A DNA stretch of 26,221 nucleotides, from positions 1-26,221 of IMG/VR virus record IMGVR_UViG_2617270943_000001; one strand, 5' to 3'. The position numbers and the translations under genes are program-made. This document shows, piece by piece, positions 1 to 26,221 of this stretch; positions within the stretch are counted from its first letter, which is position 1, and each line of letters opens with the position of its first letter. The DNA is from a virus (taxonomy: Duplodnaviria > Heunggongvirae > Uroviricota > Caudoviricetes). The notes below the pieces were generated by a model, which had not been told where the DNA came from, ran no database searches, and worked only from the letters and a program-made list of their open reading frames with translations.

Positions 1-1164
1 TTACGCCTTCTTTATATCCTCCATAATTCCAGAGTGGGACATATTTGGGACATTATCACCAAAAATGTCGTCTATTTTCCTCGCATGCTCTGTCAAATGA
101 TTAGGCGCAAGGTGAGCATACCTACGAACCATTTCTATGGACTCCCATCCGCCCATTTCCTGAAGCACTGATAATGGGACGCCTGACTGAATCAGCCAGC
201 TTGCCCAGGTGTGTCTGAGGTCATGGAAACGGAAATCTTCAATTCCTGCACGACGACAAGCTGATAGCCATGATGTCTTGCTGTCGATGCGCATCTTCCT
301 GACCGCAGGCGTTGATGTTCCATCTGCTCGCTTAGCCGCCTTGGTATGTACAAACACCCATTTGTGATGCTTGCCTATTTGATCACGCAACACTTTACAG
401 GCGGTATCGTTCAGCGCCACACCAATGGCGCGGTTTGATTTGCTCTCTTCTGGATTCACCCAGGCAACTCGTCGCTGCATGTCGATTTGTTGCCATTCCA
501 GATTTATGATGTTCGACTTTCTCAGACCAGTTGCCAGCGCAAACTTGACGACAGATTTCAGTGGTTCGGGGCACTCATCAATAAGGCGTTTTGCTTCCTC
601 CTTTTCCAGCCATCTGACTCGCTTGTTTCTGACCGCTGGTATCTTGATGACAGGCGCTTTTTCCAGCCACTTCCAGTCGCGTTCTGCAGCACGGAGAATG
701 GCCTTTATCATGGCAAGATGCTTTGCCTTTGTCTGAGTTGATACTGGCTTTGGTTCATAAACAGGCGGTTCTTTACCTTTCCTGATGGCGGCCTGAACTT
801 TCTGTTTCCATATTTCTTTCGTCTTTCTGTTATGCATTCTGCTTACAGCAGAGTAAATCTTTGCCTCCGAGATATCTTTAAGCCTTATACCCTCAAAATG
901 TTCAAGCCAGAACTCAATCCGGCTTTTATCTGAATCGAGAGATTTTTTATCAGCTTTTTCCTCAAGCCATCTTAGGCAGGCCTCTTCAAAAGTGACATCA
1001 GGTAAATCCCCTAGCTTTTCTACTCGCCAGAGTTCTGCTTTTCGCTTGTCGTGCAACTCCTGAGCTTGCCGCTTGTCCTTTGTGCCAAGAGATTCCTTAA
1101 TTCGTTTCCCGCCCGGGAGCGAATACGAGGCATACCATATTTCATTTCTGCGGAAGAGTGACAT
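1..1164 (-). CDS. int: Tyrosine-type site-specific integrase, 387 aa
   Basis: Complete ORF on minus strand; C-terminal HDLRHTWAS...VRRYAHL block matches the tyrosine recombinase box II pattern (His-x-x-Arg...Tyr); sits at the prophage end next to an excisionase-like gene. Stop codon is at window position 1-3, so attL lies outside the window. Confidence 0.9.
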
Positions 1165-1391
1165 TTTCTTTCCTCTGTTATGCCATCACCCGCGCTCACC
1201 TGGACAGTATGCAGCGGAGACTGAAGCGCCGCAATGCAGGCTTGCCGTGTTGTGAGGTAAGGAGATTTTGGCTTGGTTGGATCTTTACGTGTTGCCTGTA
1301 GGCGGCCTGTTCGTATCCAGTTGGTGGCGGTTGGTCTGGATATCTTAAGAAACTGACAGGCCTCATCGAGTGTGAGGCTGTATGATTCCAT
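1020..1391 (-). CDS. xis: Excisionase-like DNA-binding protein (start at internal Met, [31 protein letters not shown])
   Basis: ATG at 1391 (minus) gives an N-terminal helix-turn-helix typical of Xis/AlpA-type proteins, immediately upstream of int. The reading frame stays open to 1020 and so overlaps the int start by 145 nt; true C-terminus not verified. Confidence 0.55.
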
Positions 1392-1641
1392 GGTTACCTC
1401 TGCTTTTTGAACGCATGTCACGTAACTTCTTAATGTGTTCTGCCGTTTCGATCTCTTCTGCTATCCGATCTGCATCAGCTTTATTCACAGGTTCAAAGTC
1501 ATGATTAAAGCGGAACATGCTGGCGATACATGTTCTGCCTTTTCGGATGTAGTGAACTTTGTTGTGGGTAGAACGCAGGATTTTGCAGGGAGTGCCGTGG
1601 TGGTCGACGTACCAGGTGTTAGGAAAAATGATTCTGAACAT
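1363..1641 (-). CDS. Hypothetical small prophage protein, 92 aa
   Basis: ORF in the leftward early operon, co-oriented with neighbours. Product not recognised with certainty. Confidence 0.45.
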   Translation of the reverse strand: MFRIIFPNTWYVDHHGTPCKILRSTHNKVHYIRKGRTCIASMFRFNHDFEPVNKADADRIAEEIETAEHIKKLRDMRSKSRGNHGIIQPHTR

Positions 1642-1688
1642 TTTTACACCTCAGTTGGACGATGTTGAAATTTGCTGCTTTGAGGCCA

Positions 1689-1907
1689 TCACAGTCCCCA
1701 TTGTTTGTTCTTAAGTTCGATCTCCTCCTGGCAACTTGCACAAGTCCGACAACCCTGAACAGCCAGGCGTCTTCGCTCATCTATCGGATCGCCACACTCA
1801 CAACAATGAGTTGCGGATACAGTCTGGTAGTTCAGACGACGCATTTTTATTGCTGTATTGCGCTGTAATTCTTCGATTTCTGATGCCGAATCAATGATGT
1901 CTGCCAT
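1689..1907 (-). CDS. TraR/DksA-family C4-type zinc-finger protein, 72 aa
   Basis: Four-Cys motif CxxC...CxxC (HCCECGDPID...GCRTCASCQ) in a 72-aa phage early protein, typical of TraR/YbiI-like zinc-finger proteins of prophages and plasmids. Confidence 0.7.
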   Translation of the reverse strand: MADIIDSASEIEELQRNTAIKMRRLNYQTVSATHCCECGDPIDERRRLAVQGCRTCASCQEEIELKNKQWGL

Positions 1908-2005
1908 CTTCCATTAATCCCTGAATTGTTGGTTAATACGCTTGAGGATGAATGCGAACAATAAAAAAGGAGCCTGTAGCTCCCTGATGATTTTGCTTTT
2001 CATGT

Positions 2006-2287
2006 TCACCGTTCCTTAAAGACGCCGTTTAACATGCCGATCGCCAGGCTTAAATGAGTCGGTGTGAATCCCATCAGCGTTACCGTTTCGCGGTGCTTCT
2101 TCAGTACGCTACGGCAAATGTCATCGACGTTTTTATCCGGAAACTGCTGTCTGGCTTTTTTGATTTCAGAATTAGCCTGACGGGCAATGCTGCGAAGGGC
2201 GTTTTCCTGCTGAGGTGTCATTGAACAAGTCCCATGTCGGCAAGCATAAGCACACAGAATATGAAGCCCGCTGCCAGAAAAATGCAT
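2006..2287 (-). CDS. Hypothetical small prophage protein (start uncertain; candidate ATGs at 2317, 2287, 2221)
   Basis: ORF in the leftward operon between the zinc-finger gene and exo. No recognisable motif. Confidence 0.35.
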   Translation of the reverse strand: MHFSGSGLHILCAYACRHGTCSMTPQQENALRSIARQANSEIKKARQQFPDKNVDDICRSVLKKHRETVTLMGFTPTHLSLAIGMLNGVFKER

Positions 2288-2297
2288 TCCGTGGTTG

Positions 2298-2489
2298 TCA
2301 TACCTGGTCTCTCTCATCTGCTTCTGCTTTCGCCACCATCATTTCCAGCTTTTGTGAAAGGGATGCGGCTAACGTATGAAATTCTTCGTCTGTTTCTACT
2401 GGTATTGGCACAAACCTGACTCCAATTTGAGCGAGGCTATGTGCCATCTCGATACTCGTTCTTAACTCAACGGGAGATGCTTTGTGCAT
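2298..2489 (-). CDS. Hypothetical small acidic prophage protein, 63 aa
   Basis: Co-oriented ORF tightly packed in the leftward early operon. Function unknown. Confidence 0.4.
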   Translation of the reverse strand: MHKASPVELRTSIEMAHSLAQIGVRFVPIPVETDEEFHTLAASLSQKLEMMVAKAEADERDQV

Positions 2490-2650
2490 ACAGCTCCCCG
2501 TTTATTATTTATCTCCTCAGCCAGCCGCTGTGCTTTCAGGGGATTTCGGATAACAGAAAGGCCGGGAAATACCCAGCCTCGCTTCGTAACGGAGTAGACG
2601 AAAGTGATCGTGCCTACGCGGATATTATCGTGAGGATGTTTCATCGCCAT
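2462..2650 (-). CDS. Hypothetical small prophage protein, 62 aa
   Basis: Start overlaps the exo stop by about 10 nt, a typical phage operon coupling arrangement. Function unknown. Confidence 0.4.
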
Positions 2651-3321
2651 TGCTCCCCAAATACAAAACCAATTTCAGCCAGTGCCTCGTCCATTTTTTC
2701 GATGAACTCCGGCACCATCTCGTCAAAACTCGCTATATACTTTTCATTCCGCTCAATCACGACATAATGCAGGCCTTCACGCTTCATACGCGGGTCATAG
2801 TTGGCAAAGTACCAGGCATCTTTTCGCGTCACCCACATGCTGTACTGCACCTGGGCCATGTAAGCCGATTTTATTGCCTCGAAACCACCGAGCCGGAATT
2901 TCATGAAATCCCGGGAGGTAAACGGGCATTTCAGTTCAAGGCCGTTGCCGTCACTGCATAAACCATCGGGAGAGCAGGCGGTGCGCATACTTTCGTCGCG
3001 ATAGATGATCGGGGATTCAGTAACATTCACGCCGGAAGTAAACTCAAACAGGGCTCTGGCGTCATTCTCGTACTGTTTTCCCCAGGCCAGCGCCTTAGCG
3101 TTAACTTCCGGAGCCACACCGGTGCAAATCTCAGCCAGCAGGGTGTGAAAGTAGGACATTTTCATGTCAGGCCACTTTTTTCCGGAGCGGGGTTTTGCTA
3201 TCACATTGTGAACTTCTGAAGCCGTGATGACGCCGAGTCGTAATTTGTTCCACGCATCATCTCCCTGTTCGACAGCTCTCACGTCGATCCCGGTACGCTG
3301 CAGGATAATGTCCGGTGTCAT
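2641..3321 (-). CDS. exo: Lambda-type exonuclease (Red alpha), 226 aa
   Basis: Translation [24 protein letters not shown]...[10 protein letters not shown] is near-identical over its full length to phage lambda Exo as I recall it; located directly downstream of bet. Confidence 0.95.
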
Positions 3322-11111: not shown

Positions 11112-11255
11112 GTAATAATCACTTTTTCAACCGTGCTATAGTAAGAAAGTTAGGTAAGTACATTTAGACTGGCCCCCTGAATCTCCAGACAACCAATATC
11201 ACTTAAATAAGTGATAGTCTTAATACTAGTTTTTAGACTAGTCATTGGAGAACAG

Positions 11256-11621
11256 ATGATTGATGTCTTAGGGCCGGAGAAACGCAGACGGCGTACCACA
11301 CAGGAAAAGATCGCAATTGTTCAGCAGAGCTTTGAACCGGGGATGACGGTCTCCCTCGTTGCCCGGCAACATGGTGTAGCAGCCAGCCAGTTATTTCTCT
11401 GGCGTAAGCAATACCAGGAAGGAAGTCTTACTGCTGTCGCCGCCGGAGAACAGGTTGTTCCTGCCTCTGAACTTGCTGCCGCCATGAAGCAGATTAAAGA
11501 ACTCCAGCGCCTGCTCGGCAAGAAAACGATGGAAAATGAACTCCTCAAAGAAGCCGTTGAATATGGACGGGCAAAAAAGTGGATAGCGCACGCGCCCTTA
11601 TTGCCCGGGGATGGGGAGTAA
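11256..11621 (+). CDS. insC: IS2 transposase OrfA (InsC)
   Basis: Translation [47 protein letters not shown]... with HTH; ends just after the AAAAAAG slippery heptamer at 11573..11579. Confidence 0.9.
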
Positions 11622-12484
11622 GCTTAGTCAGCCGTTGTCTCCGGGTGTCGCGTGCGCAGTTGCACGTCATTCTCAGACGAACCGATGACTGGATGGATGG
11701 CCGCCGCAGTCGTCACACTGATGATACGGATGTGCTTCTCCGTATACACCATGTTATCGGAGAGCTGCCCACGTATGGTTATCGTCGGGTATGGGCGCTG
11801 CTTCGCAGACAGGCAGAACTTGATGGTATGCCTGCGATCAATGCCAAACGTGTTTACCGGATCATGCGCCAGAATGCGCTGTTGCTTGAGCGAAAACCTG
11901 CTGTACCGCCATCGAAACGGGCACATACAGGCAGAGTGGCCGTGAAAGAAAGCAATCAGCGATGGTGCTCTGACGGGTTCGAGTTCTGCTGTGATAACGG
12001 AGAGAGACTGCGTGTCACGTTCGCGCTGGACTGCTGTGATCGTGAGGCACTGCACTGGGCGGTCACTACCGGCGGCTTCAACAGTGAAACAGTACAGGAC
12101 GTCATGCTGGGAGCGGTGGAACGCCGCTTCGGCAACGATCTTCCGTCGTCTCCAGTGGAGTGGCTGACGGATAATGGTTCATGCTACCGGGCTAATGAAA
12201 CACGCCAGTTCGCCCGGATGTTGGGACTTGAACCGAAGAACACGGCGGTGCGGAGTCCGGAGAGTAACGGAATAGCAGAGAGCTTCGTGAAAACGATAAA
12301 GCGTGACTACATCAGTATCATGCCCAAACCAGACGGGTTAACGGCAGCAAAGAACCTTGCAGAGGCGTTCGAGCATTATAACGAATGGCATCCGCATAGT
12401 GCGCTGGGTTATCGCTCGCCACGGGAATATCTGCGGCAGCGGGCTTGTAATGGGTTAAGTGATAACAGATGTCTGGAAATATAG
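11579..12484 (+). CDS. insD: IS2 transposase OrfB (InsD; DDE catalytic domain, expressed by -1 frameshift fusion to OrfA)
   Basis: The ORF is in the -1 frame relative to insC and overlaps it by 43 nt; sequence matches IS2 InsD as recalled, with the DDE catalytic core expected for an IS3-family OrfB. Confidence 0.9.
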
Positions 12485-12558
12485 GGGCAAATCCAACATT
12501 AAAATTATCTATCCTGAACGAAGCGTCCTGAGCTATGGTTTTACTATAGAGACTGCCA

Positions 12559-15292: not shown

Positions 15293-15377
15293 AGTCAGAG
15301 ATAACAATCAACTAATACTGTTTCGTTGATTTTTGCTTGTAATTGGCGTTCTGGTCTGATTTTTGTGGAGTAAGTTG

Positions 15378-15761
15378 ATGCGTGATATTCAGATGGTTCT
15401 TGAGCGTTGGGGAGCGTGGGCGGCTAATAATCATGAAGATGTGACCTGGTCGTCCATTGCCGCCGGTTTTAAGGGATTAATTACTTCAAAAGTAAAATCT
15501 CGCCCGCAATGTTGTGACGATGACGCGATGATCATTTGCGGGTGCATGGCCCGTCTGAAAAAGAACAACAGCGATTTGCACGATTTATTAGTAGATTATT
15601 ATGTAGTCGGTATGACATTCATGTCACTGGCAGGTAAGCATTGCTGCTCTGATGGTTATATCGGGAAAAGGTTACAGAAGGCTGAGGGCATAATTGAAGG
15701 GATGTTAATGGCATTAGATATCCGGTTAGAGATGGATATCGTTGTTAATAACTCTAATTAA
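15378..15761 (+). CDS. quuD: Late-gene antiterminator Q (phage 82/DLP12 QuuD type), 127 aa
   Basis: Translation [24 protein letters not shown]... with Cys-rich zinc-binding region ([16 protein letters not shown]); positioned after rusA and before the lysis genes. Confidence 0.8.
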
Positions 15762-15813: not shown

Positions 15814-15965
15814 AAAAATAAAGGGTAATATATAACAGAAGGTTTGTATAGTTAGAAGCAAGGTTGTGCTTCTAAAGGAAGTGGCTTGAGGGAGCCACTT
15901 ATATGTTGGGGAGGCAAAGCCTCCCACAACATATCTTTTAGTAATCAAATTAGAACTGGTAAACC
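15814..15965 (-). ncRNA. Candidate small RNA between the porin 3' end and the minus-strand terminator (IpeX-like position)
   Basis: Three perfect 8-bp hairpins (15853..15874, 15879..15900, 15901..15934) plus the terminator hairpin in under 180 nt, co-directional with the porin gene. The DLP12 sRNA IpeX is reported at the nmpC 3' end; sequence identity not verified. Confidence 0.25.
15901..15940 (+). terminator. Rho-independent terminator on plus strand (candidate tR' of the late operon)
   Basis: Extended hairpin ATATGTTG-GGGAGGC-AAA-GCCTCCC-ACAACATAT followed by CTTTT, about 140 nt downstream of Q. Confidence 0.5.
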
Positions 15966-17032
15966 ATACCTACAGCAACGATATCATCGGTAGCAACGCC
16001 AGATGCTTTCGTGAAATCGCTCTTATCAATCAGGTTGATTTTGTAGTCAACAAAAGTGGACATATTTTTGTTGAAGTAATAGGTTGCACCTACATCAACA
16101 TATTCAACCAGGTCCTGATCACCCCAAACACCCAAGTCTTTTCCTTTAGAATGCAGGTAAGCAACGGATGGACGCAGGCCGAAGTCGAACTGATATTGTG
16201 CAACAGCTTCGAAGTTTTGTGCTTTGTTGGCAATATGGTTATTACCAAAAACAGTCATGTTCTGGGTTTCAGAATAGGTGGTGGCCAGATAGATGTTGTT
16301 CGCATCATATTTCAGACCAGCTGCCCATACTTCAGCATTTTGACCAGAAGCATTCAGACCGTTGTTACCGTAGATAACCTGATTATTAGTGCGATCAGAT
16401 TTAGCATAGGTTGCACCCACGCCGAATCCTTCATACTCATAAGTAGTTGAGAAACCGAAACCATCGCCATTAGCTTCAGTTACTTCATTTCGGTCATTTT
16501 TGCCCTGATACTGAGCTGCAAAGTTCAGGCCATCAACCAGACCAAAGAAGTCGTTGTTACGATAAGTTGCAACACCTGTGGTGCGACCAGTCATGAATAC
16601 ATCTGTTTGGGTCCAGGTATCGCCACCGAATTCTGGCAGAACGTCAGTCCACGCACCGATGTCGTATGCTACACCGTAGTTACGGCCGTAATCGATTGAG
16701 CCGTAGTCACCGAATTTCAGGCCTGCAAATGCAAGACGGGTTTTGTCTTTGGAGGAACCTTGAGATTCAGCGCGGTTGCCTTTGAATTCATATTCCCACT
16801 GACCGAAACCAGTCAGTTGATCGTTGATTTGGGTTTCACCTTTGAAGCCAAGACGGGCATAAGTAGTATCACCATCATCTGCATCATTAGAGGAGAAGTA
16901 GTGCTTAGCATTAACTTTCCCGTACAGATCCAGCTTGTTACTGTCTTTATTATAAATTTCAGCTGCCTGAGCAGACATCGCCATCAGTACTGATGCAGCT
17001 ACAGCAGAAATTGCCACTGTTAATTTTTTCAT
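15950..17032 (-). CDS. nmpC: General porin of the OmpC/OmpF/PhoE family (NmpC/Lc-type phage-encoded porin), 360 aa
   Basis: Signal peptide [29 protein letters not shown], porin motifs and C-terminal VGMVYQF. Encoded antisense to the late operon between Q and the lysis genes, as in DLP12 and PA-2. Confidence 0.9.
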
Positions 17033-20377: not shown

Positions 20378-20923
20378 ATGGAAGTCAACAAAAAGCAGCT
20401 GGCTGACATTTTCGGTGCGAGTATCCGTACCATTCAGAACTGGCAGGAACAGGGAATGCCCGTTCTGCGAGGCGGTGGCAAGGGTAATGAGGTGCTTTAT
20501 GACTCTGCCGCCGTCATAAAATGGTATGCCAAAAGGGATGCTGAAATTGAGAACGAAAAGCTGCGCCGGGAGGTTGAAGAACTGCGGCAGGCCAGCGAGG
20601 CAGATCTCCAGCCAGGGACTATTGAGTACGAACGCCATCGACTTACGCGTGCGCAGGCCGACGCACAGGAACTGAAGAATGCCAGAGACTCCGCTGAAGT
20701 GGTGGAAACCGCATTCTGTACTTTCGTGCTGTCGCGGATCGCAGGTGAAATTGCCAGTATTCTCGACGGGATCCCCCTGTCGGTGCAGCGGCGTTTTCCG
20801 GAACTGGAAAACCGACATGTTGATTTCCTGAAACGGGATATCATCAAAGCCATGAACAAAGCAGCCGCGCTGGATGAACTGATACCGGGGTTGCTGAGTG
20901 AATATATCGAACAGTCAGGTTAA
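20378..20923 (+). CDS. nu1: Terminase small subunit Nu1, 181 aa
   Basis: Translation MEVNKKQLADIFGASIRTIQNWQEQGMPVLRGGGKGNEVLYDSAAVIKWYA... is near-identical to lambda Nu1 (NohD-type). Confidence 0.95.
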   Translation: MEVNKKQLADIFGASIRTIQNWQEQGMPVLRGGGKGNEVLYDSAAVIKWYAKRDAEIENEKLRREVEELRQASEADLQPGTIEYERHRLTRAQADAQELKNARDSAEVVETAFCTFVLSRIAGEIASILDGIPLSVQRRFPELENRHVDFLKRDIIKAMNKAAALDELIPGLLSEYIEQSG

Positions 20924-22199
20924 CAGGCTGCGGCATTTTGTCCGCGCCGGGCTTCGCTCACTGTTCAGGCCGGAGCCACAGACCGCCGTTGAATGGGCGG
21001 ATGCTAATTACTATCTCCCGAAAGAATCCGCATACCAGGAAGGGCGCTGGGAAACACTGCCCTTTCAGCGGGCCATCATGAATGCGATGGGCAGCGACTA
21101 CATCCGTGAGGTGAATGTGGTGAAGTCTGCCCGTGTCGGTTATCTGGATTTTTTCAAAGGCGAGATAGGGAAAACCCATCTGGCTCAGGAGCTGTGGACG
21201 CAGATTGATAACGGTCAGCTTGCGCCTGACCTGACTGAAATCAGGACGTCCATAACGGATGTCAGCAATGAAATAACGCAGACCGTCAATAAGAAACTGG
21301 AAGACCAGAGTGCAGCGATCCAGCAGATACAGAAGGTTCAGGTTGATACAAATAATAACCTGAACAGCATGTGGGCAGTGAAGCTGCAGCAGATGCAGGA
21401 CGGACGCCTTTATATTGCGGGTATCGGTGCCGGTATTGAGAACACCCCTGACGGCATGCAGAGTCAGGTGCTGCTGGCAGCAGACAGGATTGCGATGATT
21501 AATCCTGCGAATGGCAACACAAAGCCGATGTTTGTTGGTCAGGGCGATCAGATATTCATGAATGAAGTGTTCCTGAAACGCCTGACGGCCCCCACCATTA
21601 CCAGCGGCGGTAATCCTCCGGCATTTTCCCTGACATCAGACGGGAGACTGACGGCGAAAAATGCGGATATCAGTGGCAGTGTGAATGCGAACTCAGGAAC
21701 GCTCAACAATGTCACGATTAACCAGAACTGTACGATTAAGGGCATGCTGGAGGCGACCCAGGTCAGAGGAGATTTCGTTAAAGCTGTATCAAAAGCCTTC
21801 CCGAAAAAAGTCGGTACATGGGGTAACACGGAAACACCAAACGGTACGGTTACAGTCACCATCAGCGATGATCATAACTTTGACCGCCAGATTATTATTC
21901 CGCCCATTATTTTTAACGGTATAGCGTATGACGATCCGGGGAGCGGAAATAACCCAGGAGGCACGCGATACACGGGTTATGGTTTTGAAGTTCGCAAAAA
22001 CGGCGTATTAATCGCATCCAGAGAAACTAAAGGGGCCATTCCCGGTAGTTACAGTGCAGTTATTGATATGCCCAGTGGCAGGGGAAGCGTCACTCTGGAG
22101 TTTAAGATTTTCCAGAAAGGCAATCAGGGGGCAGGCAATATCACCGACTGTACGGTGATTGTGACCAAAAAAGCCGCTTCCGGCATCAGTATTCGTTGA
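20898..22199 (+). pseudogene. Chimeric in-frame ORF: terminase large subunit A N-terminus (about 82 aa) fused to the C-terminal about 350 aa of tail-tip host-specificity protein J
   Basis: Residues 1-82 (MNISNSQVNRLRHFVRAGLRSLFRPEPQTAVEWADANYYLPKESAYQEGRWETLPFQRAIMNAMGSDYIREVNVVKSARVGY) match lambda A; the remainder (...WAVKLQQMQDGRLYIAGIGAGIENT...SGGNPPAFSLT...VNANSGTLNNVTI...) matches the lambda J C-terminal region; junction near 21144. Start overlaps nu1 by 26 nt as in lambda. Confidence 0.75.
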
Positions 22200-22269: not shown

Positions 22270-22869
22270 ATGCGTAAAGTTTGTGCAGCAATTTTGTCCG
22301 CAGCCATTTGTCTGGCCGTATCCGGTGCGCCTGCATGGGCGTCTGAACATCAGTCCACGCTGAGCGCGGGGTATCTTCATGCCTCGACGAACGTCCCCGG
22401 CAGCGATGATCTGAACGGGATTAACGTGAAATACCGTTATGAGTTTACGGACACACTGGGGCTGGTGACGTCATTCAGCTATGCAGGAGACAAGAATCGC
22501 CAGCTGACCCGTTACAGCGATACCCGCTGGCATGAAGATTCCGTTCGTAACCGCTGGTTCAGCGTAATGGCGGGGCCGTCTGTGCGCGTGAATGAATGGT
22601 TCAGCGCGTATGCGATGGCGGGTGTAGCTTACAGCCGTGTGTCGACTTTCTCCGGGGATTATCTTCGCGTAACTGACAACAAGGGGAAAAAGCACGATGT
22701 GCTGACCGGAAGTGATGACGGTCGCCACAGCAACACGTCTCTGGCGTGGGGGGCTGGCGTGCAGTTTAACCCGACCGAATCCGTGGCCATTGATATTGCT
22801 TATGAAGGCTCCGGCAGTGGTGACTGGCGCACTGACGGTTTCATCGTGGGTGTCGGTTATAAATTCTGA
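22270..22869 (+). CDS. lom: Lom outer-membrane beta-barrel protein (Ail/Lom family), 199 aa
   Basis: Signal peptide and Ail/Lom-type beta-barrel ending in VGVGYKF; gene order J-lom-stf as in lambda. Confidence 0.9.
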   Translation: MRKVCAAILSAAICLAVSGAPAWASEHQSTLSAGYLHASTNVPGSDDLNGINVKYRYEFTDTLGLVTSFSYAGDKNRQLTRYSDTRWHEDSVRNRWFSVMAGPSVRVNEWFSAYAMAGVAYSRVSTFSGDYLRVTDNKGKKHDVLTGSDDGRHSNTSLAWGAGVQFNPTESVAIDIAYEGSGSGDWRTDGFIVGVGYKF

Positions 22870-22895: not shown

Positions 22896-22923
22896 AGCCC
22901 GCCGGTTCAGGCGGGCTTTTTTG
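22896..22923 (+). terminator. Rho-independent terminator after lom
   Basis: AGCCCGCC-GGTTCA-GGCGGGCT hairpin followed by TTTTTTG. Confidence 0.7.
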
Positions 22924-22933
22924 TGGGGTGAAT

Positions 22934-25900
22934 ATGGCAGTAAAGATTTCAGGTGTACTGAAAGACGGCACAGGAAAACCGGTACAGAACTGCACAATCC
23001 AGCTGAAAGCAAAACGTAACAGCACCACGGTGGTGGTGAACACGCTGGCCTCAGAAAATCCGGATGAAGCCGGGCGTTACAGCATGGACGTTGAGTACGG
23101 GCAGTACAGCGTTATTCTGTTGGTGGAGGGATTCCCGCCGTCACATGCCGGGACCATCACCGTGTATGAAGATTCCCGACCCGGTACGCTGAATGATTTT
23201 CTCGGTGCCATGACGGAGGATGATGCCCGTCCTGAGGCACTGCGCCGTTTTGAACTGATGGTGGAAGAGGTGGCGCGTAACGCGTCCGCGGTGGCACAGA
23301 ACACGGCAGCCGCGAAGAAGTCAGCCAGCGATGCCGGCACATCAGCCCGTGAGGCGGCAACCCATGCGACTGATGCTGCAGGCTCAGCACGCGCAGCCAG
23401 CACGTCAGCCGGACAGGCCGCTTCGTCGGCTCAGTCAGCGTCTTCCAGCGCAGGAACGGCATCAACAAAGGCCACTGAAGCGGAAAAAAGTGCTGCCGCT
23501 GCAGAGTCCTCAAAAAGCGCGGCGGTCACCAGTGCCGCTGCGGCGAAAACGTCAGAAACGAATGCGGCAGCGTCACAACAATCAGCAGCCACTTCTGCAT
23601 CCGCCGCGACCACGAAGGCGTCAGAAGCAGCCACCTCAGCCCGGGATGCGGCGGCCTCAAAAGAGGCAGCGAAATCATCAGAAACGAACGCATCATCAAG
23701 CGCCAGTAGTGCCGCTTCCTCGGCAACGGCGGCAGGCAATTCCGCGAAGGCGGCAAAGACGTCTGAGACAAACGCCAGGTCTTCTGAAACGGCAGCGGGA
23801 CAGAGCGCCTCGGCTGCGGCAGGCTCAAAAACAGCGGCTGCGTCGTCTGCCAGTGCCGCGTCAACAAGTGCCGGGCAGGCCTCAGCCAGTGCCACCGCCG
23901 CCGGAAAATCGGCAGAAAGCGCCGCATCGTCTGCTTCAACAGCCACAACGAAGGCTGGCGAAGCCACTGAACAGGCCAGCGCAGCAGCAAGGTCTGCTTC
24001 CGCAGCGAAGACATCCGAGACGAACGCGAAAGCGTCGGAAACCAGCGCAGAATCCTCAAAAACGGCTGCCGCATCGTCCGCCAGTTCGGCGGCGTCATCG
24101 GCATCATCGGCGTCTGCTTCAAAAGATGAGGCGACCAGACAAGCGTCCGCAGCGAAGGGCAGCGCCACGACGGCATCCACGAAGGCGACAGAGGCAGCTG
24201 GCAGTGCGACGGCGGCAGCACAGAGCAAAAGTACGGCGGAATCCGCGGCAACGCGCGCCGAGACAGCGGCAAAACGGGCAGAGGATATTGCATCCGCCGT
24301 GGCGCTTGAGGATGCAAGTACGACGAAAAAGGGGATAGTACAGCTCAGCAGTGCGACCAACAGTACGTCTGAAACGCTGGCGGCAACGCCAAAGGCAGTA
24401 AAATCAGCCTATGACAATGCAGAGAAACGTCTGCAGAAAGACCAGAACGGCGCTGATATACCCGATAAGGGACGCTTCCTGAACAACATTAACGCGGTCA
24501 GTAAAACAGACTTTGCTGATAAGCGTGGTATGCGTTATGTGCGGGTTAACGCTCCTGCAGGTGCAACATCTGGAAAATATTACCCTGTTGTTGTTATGCG
24601 TTCTGCTGGCTCAGTAAGCGAACTGGCATCAAGGGTCATTATCACCACGGCAACGCGAACCGCAGGCGATCCGATGAATAACTGCGAGTTTAACGGATTT
24701 GTTATGCCTGGTGGCTGGACTGACAGGGGGCGTTATGCTTATGGAATGTTCTGGCAATATCAAAACAATGAACGAGCCATCCACTCAATAATGATGAGTA
24801 ATAAGGGCGATGATTTGCGCTCTGTGTTCTATGTTGATGGCGCTGCTTTCCCTGTTTTTGCGTTTATCGAAGATGGCCTGTCAATATCCGCACCTGGTGC
24901 TGATCTCGTTGTTAATGATACGACCTATAAGTTTGGGGCAACAAATCCGGCGACTGAATGTATCGCGGCGGACGTTATCCTTGATTTTAAGAGTGGGCGT
25001 GGTTTTTATGAGTCTCATTCGTTAATCGTTAACGATAACTTGTCGTGCAAAAAACTTTTTGCCACAGACGAAATTGTAGCGCGTGGTGGTAATCAGATTC
25101 GAATGATAGGTGGGGAGTATGGGGCATTATGGCGTAATGATGGCGCTAAAACTTACCTGCTGCTTACCAATCAAGGTGATGTTTATGGTGGCTGGAATAC
25201 ATTAAGACCGTTTGCTATTGATAACGCAACCGGCGAACTGGTTATTGGAACCAAACTGTCCGCAAGTCTGAACGGTAATGCATTAACAGCAACAAAGCTG
25301 CAAACGCCAAGACGGGTTTCTGGTGTTGAGTTTGATGGTTCCAAAGATATTACTTTAACCGCCGCGCATGTGGCTGCTTTTGCCAGAAGGGCAACGGATA
25401 CATATGCCGATGCGGATGGTGGCGTTCCCTGGAATGCCGAATCAGGCGCTTATAATGTCACCCGCTCTGGCGACAGCTATATTCTGGTTAACTTCTATAC
25501 CGGAGTCGGAAGTTGCCGGACCTTGCAGATGAAGGCGCATTACAGAAATGGTGGTCTGTTCTACCGTTCTTCAAGAGACGGTTATGGTTTTGAGGAAGAC
25601 TGGGCAGAAGTTTATACCTCGAAAAATCTTCCACCAGAAAGCTACCCAGTCGGCGCACCAATCCCGTGGCCATCAGATACCGTTCCGTCTGGTTATGCCC
25701 TGATGCAGGGGCAGACTTTTGACAAATCTGCTTACCCGAAACTTGCAGCCGCTTATCCGTCAGGCGTGATCCCTGATATGCGTGGCTGGACGATTAAGGG
25801 CAAACCTGCCAGTGGTCGGGCCGTATTGTCTCAGGAACAGGACGGCATTAAATCGCATACCCACAGCGCCAGCGCATCCAGTACAGATTTGGGGACGAAA

Positions 25901-26221
25901 ACCACATCGTCGTTTGATTACGGCACTAAATCCACGAATAACACTGGTGCGCATACCCATAGTTTAAGTGGCAGCACGAATGCAGCTGGTAATCACAGCC
26001 ATAGAGATGGCCGTCGATTTAACCCCAGTGTTTTTAAAGATACTTATCAATATGGTTATACAAGCTCAGGTCAAAATACCTGGGGTGTACAAGGCTCAGT
26101 AGGTATGTCTACGGGGTGGTTAGCTAATACCAGTACAGATGGTAATCATAGCCACTCACTGTCCGGCACAGCAGCATCTGCAGGTGCACACGCGCATACT
26201 GTCGGTATTGGTGCTCATACG
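22934..26221 (+). CDS. stf: Side tail fibre protein (Stf-like), 3'-partial; at least 1096 codons open to the window end
   Basis: Manual translation from ATG 22934 ([30 protein letters not shown]...) stays open to 26221; long Ala/Ser/Thr-rich repetitive region; C-terminal HxH motifs ([26 protein letters not shown]) typical of phage long tail fibres. Absent from the ORF track because no stop codon lies within the window. Confidence 0.8.

Follow-up and report, generated by a model that had tools for sequence, protein, structure and literature searches.

A mosaic stfR-type side tail fibre gene in a deleted lambdoid prophage of Escherichia coli

The window, which is the whole 26,221-nucleotide stretch of DNA that was analysed, ends in three genes read from the same strand: a truncated J (J'), lom, and stf, with tfa following stf in near-identical loci. 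The stf frame occupies positions 22934-26221 of the + strand and continues past the window end. On retranslation its 1096 codons contained no stop, so that the open reading frame of the first-pass annotation stands, and 36 further codons lie beyond the window end, judged from the near-identical 1132-residue allele of strain 90-1. The completeness of this copy, that is, the last 36 codons and tfa, is presumed from these near-identical loci. The features of the locus are collected in Table 1.

Table 1. Features of the stf locus and of its upstream flank, by position in the window
Feature	Position	Strand	Evidence
In-frame fusion of gpA codons 1-82 to gpJ codons 813-1165 (deletion scar)	20898..22199	+	ORF list, Pfam, comparison with PM4-5
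lom (Ail/Lom outer-membrane protein), usual upstream neighbour of stf	22270..22869	+	Pfam PF06316, E 1e-122
GC-rich hairpin followed by a T-run, terminator-like, between lom and stf	22896..22917	+	8 pairs, 7 of them G-C, then TTTTTT
Stf N-terminal collar domain, aa 1-94	22934..23215	+	PDB 9e7m, Pfam PF08400
Ala/Ser/Thr-rich shaft, aa ~103-459	23240..24310	+	Period of 7 in a single register, helical model
AAKTSETNA, three copies (nt 23540, 23750, 24002), and AAKSSETNA (23666)	23540..24028	+	Common heptad register
Spurious ORFs	23331-24338, 23431-24360, 23526-24317	+, -, -	ORF list
Conserved 24-residue junction motif (aa 467-490) and first breakpoint (24403-24462)	24332..24462	+	Comparison of relatives
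Middle module, aa ~521-892	24494..25609	+	PF21446; PDB 4uxe, 5nxf, 8ju3; PHROG tail-fibre families; GC3 0.40
T4 gp37-type collar (aa 907-954) and HxH needle, incomplete where the window stops	25652..26221	+	PDB 2xgf, Pfam Collar

The predicted protein differs at one residue in 1096 from RefSeq StfR WP_000279133.1, the annotated stfR product of strains 90-1 and PM4-5. At the nucleotide level the gene is 99.9% identical to genes annotated as stfR, and in those genomes tfaR and pinR lie downstream. At the amino terminus, the phage_tail_N family (PF08400) is matched over its full profile length by residues 1-134 (E 1.5e-71), and the lambda side-fibre collar chain 9e7m ("Tail fiber protein") is matched by the collar domain (E 1.9e-51). 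These two matches, the stfR annotation and the place of the gene after J'-lom substantiate the proposal that the gene encodes a side tail fibre, and nothing in the sequence argues against that assignment. In lambda, the gpV-gpM junction is where the Stf collar domain attaches to the tail (PMC12617516). By homology, the same domain would anchor the present fibre on a lambda-type tail, as the first of five modules in a homotrimeric side tail fibre.

The second module is the shaft. Approximately 51 heptads run unbroken and in one register from residue 103 to residue 459, with the consensus A-[ST]-A-A-x-[TS]-S; Ala fills the first position in 35 of the 51 heptads and the fourth in 47, and Ser the seventh in 37. 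Autocorrelation over residues 101-480 gave a peak at each multiple of seven up to a lag of 119 (z 7.5-10.9 against 300 shuffles). The tandem-repeat shaft that the first-pass annotation had described is therefore real as a repeat, but its unit is a seven-residue heptad and not a longer unit built on the motif AAKTSETNA; a longer unit was considered and rejected, as self-BLASTP of the shaft returned no significant longer internal repeat. The repeat is visible only in the protein. Tandem Repeats Finder, run on the DNA, reported as its sole array 22 nt at 24090-24111, and DNA self-BLAST of the shaft gave two short matches, displaced by 231 and 567 nt, each a multiple of 21. The motif itself does recur as claimed, with exact copies of AAKTSETNA beginning at residues 203, 273 and 357 and AAKSSETNA at residue 245 (successive spacings of 42, 28 and 84 residues). 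A 9-mer present three or more times turned up in 4 of 2000 plain shuffles and, when the heptads were preserved, in 1 of 2000. Synonymous differences between the copies of the motif show that they did not arise by recent duplication of DNA.

An AlphaFold2 single-sequence model places residues 98-505 nearly entirely in helix (mean pLDDT 70.5), and a trimeric coiled-coil model exists for the homologous region of lambda Stf, residues 102-393 (PMC12617516). The shaft is thus a predicted alpha-helical coiled coil, in which some 51 heptads would form the rod of the fibre, Ala taking both core positions. Shaft length does not always change by whole heptads: the lambda shaft, shorter by 105 residues (15 heptads), fits such a rule, but two related alleles on other contigs have gained 4 and 9 residues by tandem duplication, lengths that are not multiples of seven. 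It is therefore not established that the family keeps strictly to the heptad register.

The composition of the DNA changes along the gene. GC content falls from approximately 0.62 to 0.44-0.50 near 24350-24500 and GC3 from 0.55-0.59 to 0.40-0.42, in agreement with a shift that had been placed near 24400. Much of the high GC content of the shaft is owed to its Ala/Ser/Thr codons (GC2 0.77) and not to origin. The long open frames in other registers on both strands, which had been called spurious, are present as described (Table 1). They arise because the shaft is poor in T (11%) and no stop codon can form on either strand unless the + strand has a T. It could be argued that one of these frames is a real overlapping gene, most notably the Ala-rich antisense frame 23431-24360, which spans 309 codons and has a pN/pS of 0.17-0.26 against close relatives; a similar antisense frame, orf206b, is still listed in the lambda GenBank record. 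We consider this the least credible of the alternatives weighed here, and close to negligible. These frames are open only within the stretch that has 11% T, and pN/pS in the remaining frames ranges from about 0.95 to 6. For the antisense frame, pN/pS is worse than that of the stf frame in every comparison, and a value below 1 is expected because its wobble positions are shared with stf; pN/pS alone cannot reject a frame of this kind, which we reject on the other grounds. DNA encoding an Ala-rich, T-poor coiled coil is therefore an annotation trap, yielding wrong-frame ORFs of up to 335 codons.

In the stf frame, pN/pS over the full aligned regions is 0.10 against K-12, 0.10 against PhiR68_2 and 0.23 against lambda, and within the shaft 0.14-0.15 against K-12 and PhiR68_2 and 0.33 against lambda. 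Third codon positions account for 48 of the 64 differences between the window stf and its K-12 counterpart. These ratios (0.10-0.23) point to purifying selection in the stf frame.

Beyond the shaft lies the conserved junction motif, which would serve as a recombination joint and constitutes the third module. The match to lambda stops at nt 1469 of stf and that to PhiR68_2 at nt 1482-1529, and among 68 distinct relatives most of those that diverge do so with an identity break at residues 496-521. Comparison with relatives placed three breakpoints, at 24403-24462, 25611-25652 and 25930-25976, which coincide with the junction motif, the start of the distal collar domain and the HxH "His-box" region, respectively. 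The first of these also coincides with the drop in GC3. The mosaic distal segment that had been proposed is thereby supported, and the three breakpoints together with the GC3 shift show that the modules of the fibre have different histories. With breakpoints placed to within approximately 40-60 nt, the gene is a clear case study of modular fibre construction.

The middle segment, which would be the fourth module, combines a T4 gp34-like stretch with one resembling the S fibre of Mu and P1. Residues 663-762 match the Gp34_trimer family (PF21446; E 3.3e-27), and the local likeness to the trimerisation domain in the T4 gp34 C-terminal region (4UXE, 5NXF) extends over residues 663-777. Chains of the tail fibre protein S from Mu and from the Mu S/S' fusion (P1-like; 5YVQ, 8JU3) are matched locally at residues 441-521 and again at 813-907. 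Both are single modules set within a fibre of the lambda type; the architecture of gp34 and S as a whole is not shared.

The fifth module is the tip. Its collar domain (PF07484, residues 907-954) was found with E 6.6e-12, and residues 902-1096 match the T4 gp37 tip (2XGF) with E 3.1e-63. Five complete HxH motifs lie within the window, at residues 975, 1007, 1021, 1072 and 1086, all of which align in register with HxH motifs of T4 gp37, so that the HxH motifs and T-even-type tip of the first-pass annotation hold. A sixth begins at residue 1095, where the window stops after HT; the full allele has seven, with HTH as the sixth and an additional HGH. By analogy with the gp37 needle, the seven conserved HxH layers would bind metal ions (iron), held octahedrally by His residues from three chains. 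Aligning the tip with lambda, PhiR68_2 and K-12 StfR shows its variable part to be a loop at residues ~1024-1070, between the third and fourth HxH motifs. The corresponding segment of 2XGF, which we take to be the receptor-binding head, is longer and unrelated in sequence, and the rest of the window protein is not gp37-like. This variable loop of approximately 45 residues would touch the receptor.

Given the serine recombinase gene of the pinR type that lies right after tfaR in near-identical loci, stf might be suspected of belonging to a host-range switch of the Pin/Gin/Cin type, in which alternative C-terminal fibre segments are flipped. Such invertases have been tied to the exchange of fibre genes in Mu, P1 and e14 (Sandmeier 1994, cited in PMC3945230). 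However, the window holds no gix/cix/pix-like crossover site: a search for the 26-nt crossover site returned no match in the window at up to three mismatches, and the core AAACCNNGGTTT occurs once in the window, outside stf, which is the chance level. In addition, related full loci run from stfR-tfaR to pinR with no inverted alternative fibre or tfa set between them. An invertible switch at this locus is therefore very improbable.

Among the closest known systems is StfR of the K-12 Rac prophage (b1372, 1120 aa), to which the window gene is 97.9% identical at the nucleotide level over nt 1-3039, gapless and with the same order of modules. The K-12 protein departs from this allele only in its tip loop, which lies between HxH 3 and HxH 4 and has about 35 residues compared with about 45-47 here. 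The setting also differs, since the K-12 gene resides in Rac, whereas the window stf belongs to a prophage at the DLP12 site whose lom is free of the IS5 interruption. More distant is Ur-lambda Stf, a protein of 774 residues that in lambda PaPa is divided into orf-401 and orf-314. It shares the collar domain, the shaft (87.6% nucleotide identity over nt 1-909), the junction motif, the distal collar, the first HxH layers and the last ~60 residues with the window protein, but the segment at residues ~491-906 has no counterpart in it. On Ur-lambda, four Stf trimers sit on the tail tip and speed adsorption through an outer-membrane receptor, and binding to OmpC is reported (PMC12617516). As the tip loop differs from that of lambda, OmpC specificity cannot be assumed here.

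The prophage that carries this fibre gene has lost the genes needed to use it. Compared with the intact prophage of PM4-5, 17.0 kb are deleted between codon 82 of terminase A and codon 813 of J; the deletion was mapped to the base and leaves the two genes fused in frame. The statement that the tail genes are deleted is thus correct, and with the A-to-J genes lost the resident prophage cannot build virions. It has no head or tail genes, and retains the integrase, recombination, immunity, replication and Nu1 genes, as well as quuD (the Q antiterminator) and the lysis genes upstream. K-12 Rac was considered as a second carrier of the same deletion endpoint in J, but it matches only in lom and stf. 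Over 5084 nt, J'-lom-stf shares 99.88% identity with the intact prophage of PM4-5, and flanks this similar (99.9%) indicate that the deletion is recent. An intact frame would consequently be expected even without selection and is not proof of retained function, a second trap for annotation: after a recent deletion, selection cannot be read from the intact state of a gene that a defective prophage carries.

That the fibre "can only function if supplied to another phage" is accordingly a plausible inference, but it is not demonstrated, and a recent deletion allows for a remnant that has yet to decay. We consider it most likely that the gene persists as such a not-yet-decayed remnant. An infecting lambdoid phage could nevertheless acquire stf by homologous recombination, and recombination between lambda and the stfR of Rac has a measurable frequency (PMC3945230). 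A less certain route is late transcription, which could give rise to Stf that is then assembled onto a co-resident lambda-type tail. The hairpin directly upstream of stf has a predicted fold of -19.1 kcal/mol (z -2.6), and the gene would presumably be transcribed only through Q-antiterminated late transcription. This hairpin, the near identity to PM4-5 and the IS2 element that the prophage has acquired are all consistent with a starker reading, in which stf is functionless, neither usefully expressed nor used, and intact only for lack of time to mutate. We regard this as a serious possibility, though one that we do not favour. It overlaps the explanation preferred here rather than excluding it; a silent gene is still rescuable by recombination, as Rac stfR is by lambda (PMC3945230), and K-12 Rac, a far more degraded prophage, still has an open stfR. 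At the other extreme, the deleted prophage might be a standing host-range donor whose stf is kept by selection, delivering a long-shaft, alternative-tip Stf to lambda-type virions upon superinfection or induction, either in trans or through Red/Rad52-type recombination. This seems to us unlikely. Equally speculative is the idea that heptad-wise variation in shaft length might tune the reach of the fibre.

Taken together, we hold with high confidence that 22934-26221 is an allele of stfR with the five modules outlined above, carried by a lambdoid prophage integrated at DLP12 (argU/intD) in E. coli. Left beside a 17.0-kb deletion, it most likely persists for now as an undecayed remnant. Neither the gene and its family nor the mosaic construction and the HxH tip is new as a discovery, all having been documented before. 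Hundreds of E. coli genomes have this allele annotated, and isolated phages carry it too. Among 5426 complete E. coli genomes, approximately 1230 were found to have a copy that spans at least 80% of stf, and the viable lambda-like phages Kati and PhiR34_1 have stf genes 99.5% identical to that of the window; a literature search on the provenance of the PhiR phages showed no more than their use as a panel of infective lambda-like phages.

The side tail fibre gene stf (an stfR allele) lies on the plus strand at window 22934-26221, and its retranslation gives 1096 codons with zero stops and no frameshift, so that the fibre ORF proposed in the first-pass annotation is unbroken up to the window end. 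The frame does not appear in the ORF listing because it runs past the window end. The near-identical counterpart in E. coli strain 90-1 spans 3399 nt and encodes a 1132-aa product with one residue different from the window protein; the window copy therefore lacks 36 codons. Identification as a side tail fibre is supported by the matches to phage_tail_N and the lambda collar chain 9e7m and by stfR annotations, and each third of the protein matches tail-fibre families in PHROG (3/3). The distal end aligns with the T-even gp37 tip, its five HxH motifs (aa 975, 1007, 1021, 1072 and 1086) lining up with those of gp37; the complete allele has seven, HTH and HGH being the extra two. The feature is already known: copies covering at least 80% of the query occur in 1231 of 5426 complete E. 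coli genomes, the top matches there being annotated stfR at 99.9% identity, and phages Kati and PhiR34_1, the latter from a series that serves as a panel of infective lambda-like phages, carry stf at 99.5% identity, with tfa and a gene for a PinQ/PinR-type recombinase downstream. Overall, the original observation was confirmed and its interpretation supported, with corrections, among them the length of the repeat unit.

Modules and recombination breakpoints of the stf product (residues counted from the gene start)
Feature	Residues	Window (nt)	E value	Location
phage_tail_N (Pfam)	1-134		1.5e-71	
Lambda side-fibre collar chain 9e7m	1-94		1.9e-51	
Mu and Mu S/S' fusion (P1-like) tail fibre S chains (5yvq, 8ju3)	441-521			
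Gp34_trimer (Pfam)	663-762		3.3e-27	
T4 gp34 match	706-777			
Mu S/S' fusion (P1-like) tail fibre chain (8ju3)	813-907			
Collar (Pfam)	907-954		6.6e-12	
T4 gp37 tip 2xgf	902-1096		3.1e-63	
Breakpoint 1		about 24403-24462		at conserved motif [24 protein letters not shown]
Breakpoint 2		about 25611-25652		at collar domain start
Breakpoint 3		about 25930-25976		within HxH region

Ala, Ser and Thr make up 70-80% of residues 101-450. The shaft had been described as repeated units containing AAKTSETNA, and both the repeat and the motif stand, but the unit is a heptad and not anything longer. Autocorrelation of aa 101-480 revealed a strong period of 7, with identity of 0.35-0.42 at all multiples of 7 to lag 119 (z 7.5-10.9 against 300 shuffles) and no similar signal at the remaining lags. 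Written seven to a line, residues 103-459 give about 51 heptads that keep a single unbroken register, with the consensus A-[ST]-A-A-x-[TS]-S, Ala occupying the first position in 35 of 51 and the fourth in 47 of 51, and Ser the seventh in 37 of 51. There are three exact copies of AAKTSETNA (aa 203, 273 and 357), a recurrence reached by a 9-mer in only 1-4 of 2000 shuffles, and with AAKSSETNA at aa 245 they share one heptad register at spacings of 42, 28 and 84 residues. The copies differ at synonymous sites, and therefore the peptide is conserved whereas the DNA was not recently duplicated. Self-BLAST found no longer repeat unit in the shaft and Tandem Repeats Finder detected almost nothing in its DNA; an array of long units was therefore rejected in favor of a degenerate heptad array. 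A single-sequence AlphaFold2 model renders aa 95-520 almost wholly helical (mean pLDDT 70.5), the two helix breaks being turns at which the monomer doubles back. In Ur-lambda Stf, the homologous residues 102-393 have been modelled as a trimeric coiled coil that a flexible linker joins to collar domain 1-91 (PMC12617516).

Two IMG/VR contigs (L010 and L085) carry short tandem duplications in the shaft, of 4 aa (STSA) and 9 aa (AAAAESSKS). Neither length is a whole number of heptads, indicating that replication slippage occurs in this low-complexity DNA and that register is not always kept. In three loci from Escherichia ruysiae and Escherichia sp. (L092, L103 and L112), the same collar domain precedes a far more regular shaft of 14-residue units [14 protein letters not shown] and then an unrelated distal domain, making the AAKTSETNA motif a family-wide unit.

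The low-complexity DNA was also said to create long spurious ORFs on both strands, and the other frames do hold three ORFs of 263-335 codons within 23331-24360, plus a pair of 108-118 codons in 23077-23513. Any stop on either strand requires a plus-strand T, and T is scarce in the shaft (11%, and 2% at second codon positions, compared with 26% in the remaining gene), which accounts for the open frames. Most substitutions relative to three relatives hit the third codon position in the stf frame (for K-12, 48 of 64). Shaft pN/pS in this frame is 0.14-0.15 with K-12 or PhiR68_2 as the reference and 0.33 with lambda, whereas four of the other frames give about 0.95 to 6. The antisense frame that shares wobble positions with stf gives 0.17-0.26 against close relatives and 0.40 against lambda, an expected side effect of that sharing, and is worse than the sense frame in every comparison. 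In the GenBank record of lambda, an antisense 'orf206b' is still annotated in the corresponding region.

A composition shift from about 24400 had been read as consistent with a recombined receptor-binding module. GC does fall from about 0.62 to 0.44-0.50 near 24350-24500, but part of this drop is due to amino-acid content (shaft GC2 is 0.77). GC3 declines as well: the collar domain, shaft and junction have values of 0.55-0.59, the middle module and tip 0.40-0.42. The distal modules therefore differ in synonymous composition, consistent with a different origin. For the breakpoints, the comparison covered 68 distinct relatives of full length, taken from 80 viral contigs and from other loci, with total lengths of 652 to 1252 aa. 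The shared N-terminal part stops at aa 496-499, 521, 548 or 567-577, and similarity returns at aa 766-771, 830-842 or 876. Lambda matches nt 1-909 (87.6%), 1216-1469 (79.9%) and 2719-2997 (86.4%), with a shaft offset of 315 nt, or 15 heptads, and no counterpart of nt 1470-2718, while PhiR68_2 matches nt 1-1482 and 2678-3288 around a different middle of its own. The match to K-12 and mEp332 runs to nt 3039-3043 and diverges beyond, K-12 stfR being 97.9% identical and gap-free over nt 1-3039. The ends of these matches define the three breakpoints in the table. At the protein level, K-12 StfR differs solely in the loop that separates HxH 3 from HxH 4, and PhiR68_2 carries the same loop as here on a different middle module. 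The pattern fits a 'His-box' recombination model reportedly put forward by Tetart and Krisch for T-even adhesins. From sequence comparison, the mosaic fits the module exchange in fibre evolution that PMC3945230 refers to Haggard-Ljungquist 1992 and Sandmeier 1992, 1994.

Window 1-21143 is a 99.8-99.9% match to the prophage of strain PM4-5 at the argU/intD (DLP12) site, which carries int, exo, bet, gam, repressor, cro and replication genes, emrE, ybcK, rusA, quuD, a porin gene, essD, rrrD, Rz and nohD, followed by a complete head and tail gene set. Deletion of the tail genes was borne out: relative to PM4-5, a 17.0-kb stretch running from codon 82 of terminase A to codon 813 of J is absent from the window. 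The two sides meet at 21138-21143, with TAT microhomology, and this junction creates an in-frame ORF of 433 codons (20898-22199) joining gpA codons 1-82 to gpJ codons 813-1165, with the J C-terminal receptor-binding domain retained. Identity to PM4-5 right of the junction is 99.88% over 5084 nt, and the deletion is therefore recent.

By homology, the stf product would be a trimeric fibre in which the collar domain docks onto a lambda-type tail, the long coiled coil with its Ala core serves as a spacer and the gp37-type needle displays a variable loop to an outer-membrane receptor. It had been proposed that the fibre functions only if supplied to another phage. The resident prophage is indeed unable to build a tail; that its fibre gene can matter only by way of another phage is what we infer from this. 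Recombination is the better-supported route, since lambda acquires Rac stfR markers by homologous recombination, with all sequenced recombinants differing (PMC3945230). Supply in trans would require a compatible tail and late transcription past a strong hairpin between lom and the stf start codon (22896-22917; 8 pairs, 7 of them G-C, then TTTTTT), which could keep lom transcription from reaching stf in the lysogen. Given the recent deletion, the intact frame is explained equally well by too little time to decay.

A thrW-site prophage in another E. coli (L003 21310-21480) has the same left deletion endpoint to within 1-2 nt, with 117 nt more of J retained and the fusion out of frame; either common descent or a recurrent endpoint may underlie this. 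A 1331-bp IS2 with a 5-bp target duplication lies downstream of ybcK (11165-12495) and is absent from the otherwise 99.9% identical PM4-5 prophage. An OmpC/NmpC-type porin gene (15950-17032, minus strand; 360 codons) appears intact; its position, with quuD (Q antiterminator, 15363-15761) on one side and the lysis genes on the other, is that seen in DLP12. Finally, a scan of genome contigs turned up a lambda-type stf in about 20 'genomes' from unrelated genera (Leeuwenhoekiella, Pseudomonas, Shewanella, Oceanobacillus, Kitasatospora and Bradyrhizobium among them). This stf shares 93% identity with the query and lies on contigs that have low coverage and reach about 48.5 kb (L093-L111, L114, L119, L125, L127, L129), which suggests assemblies contaminated with DNA of phage lambda.
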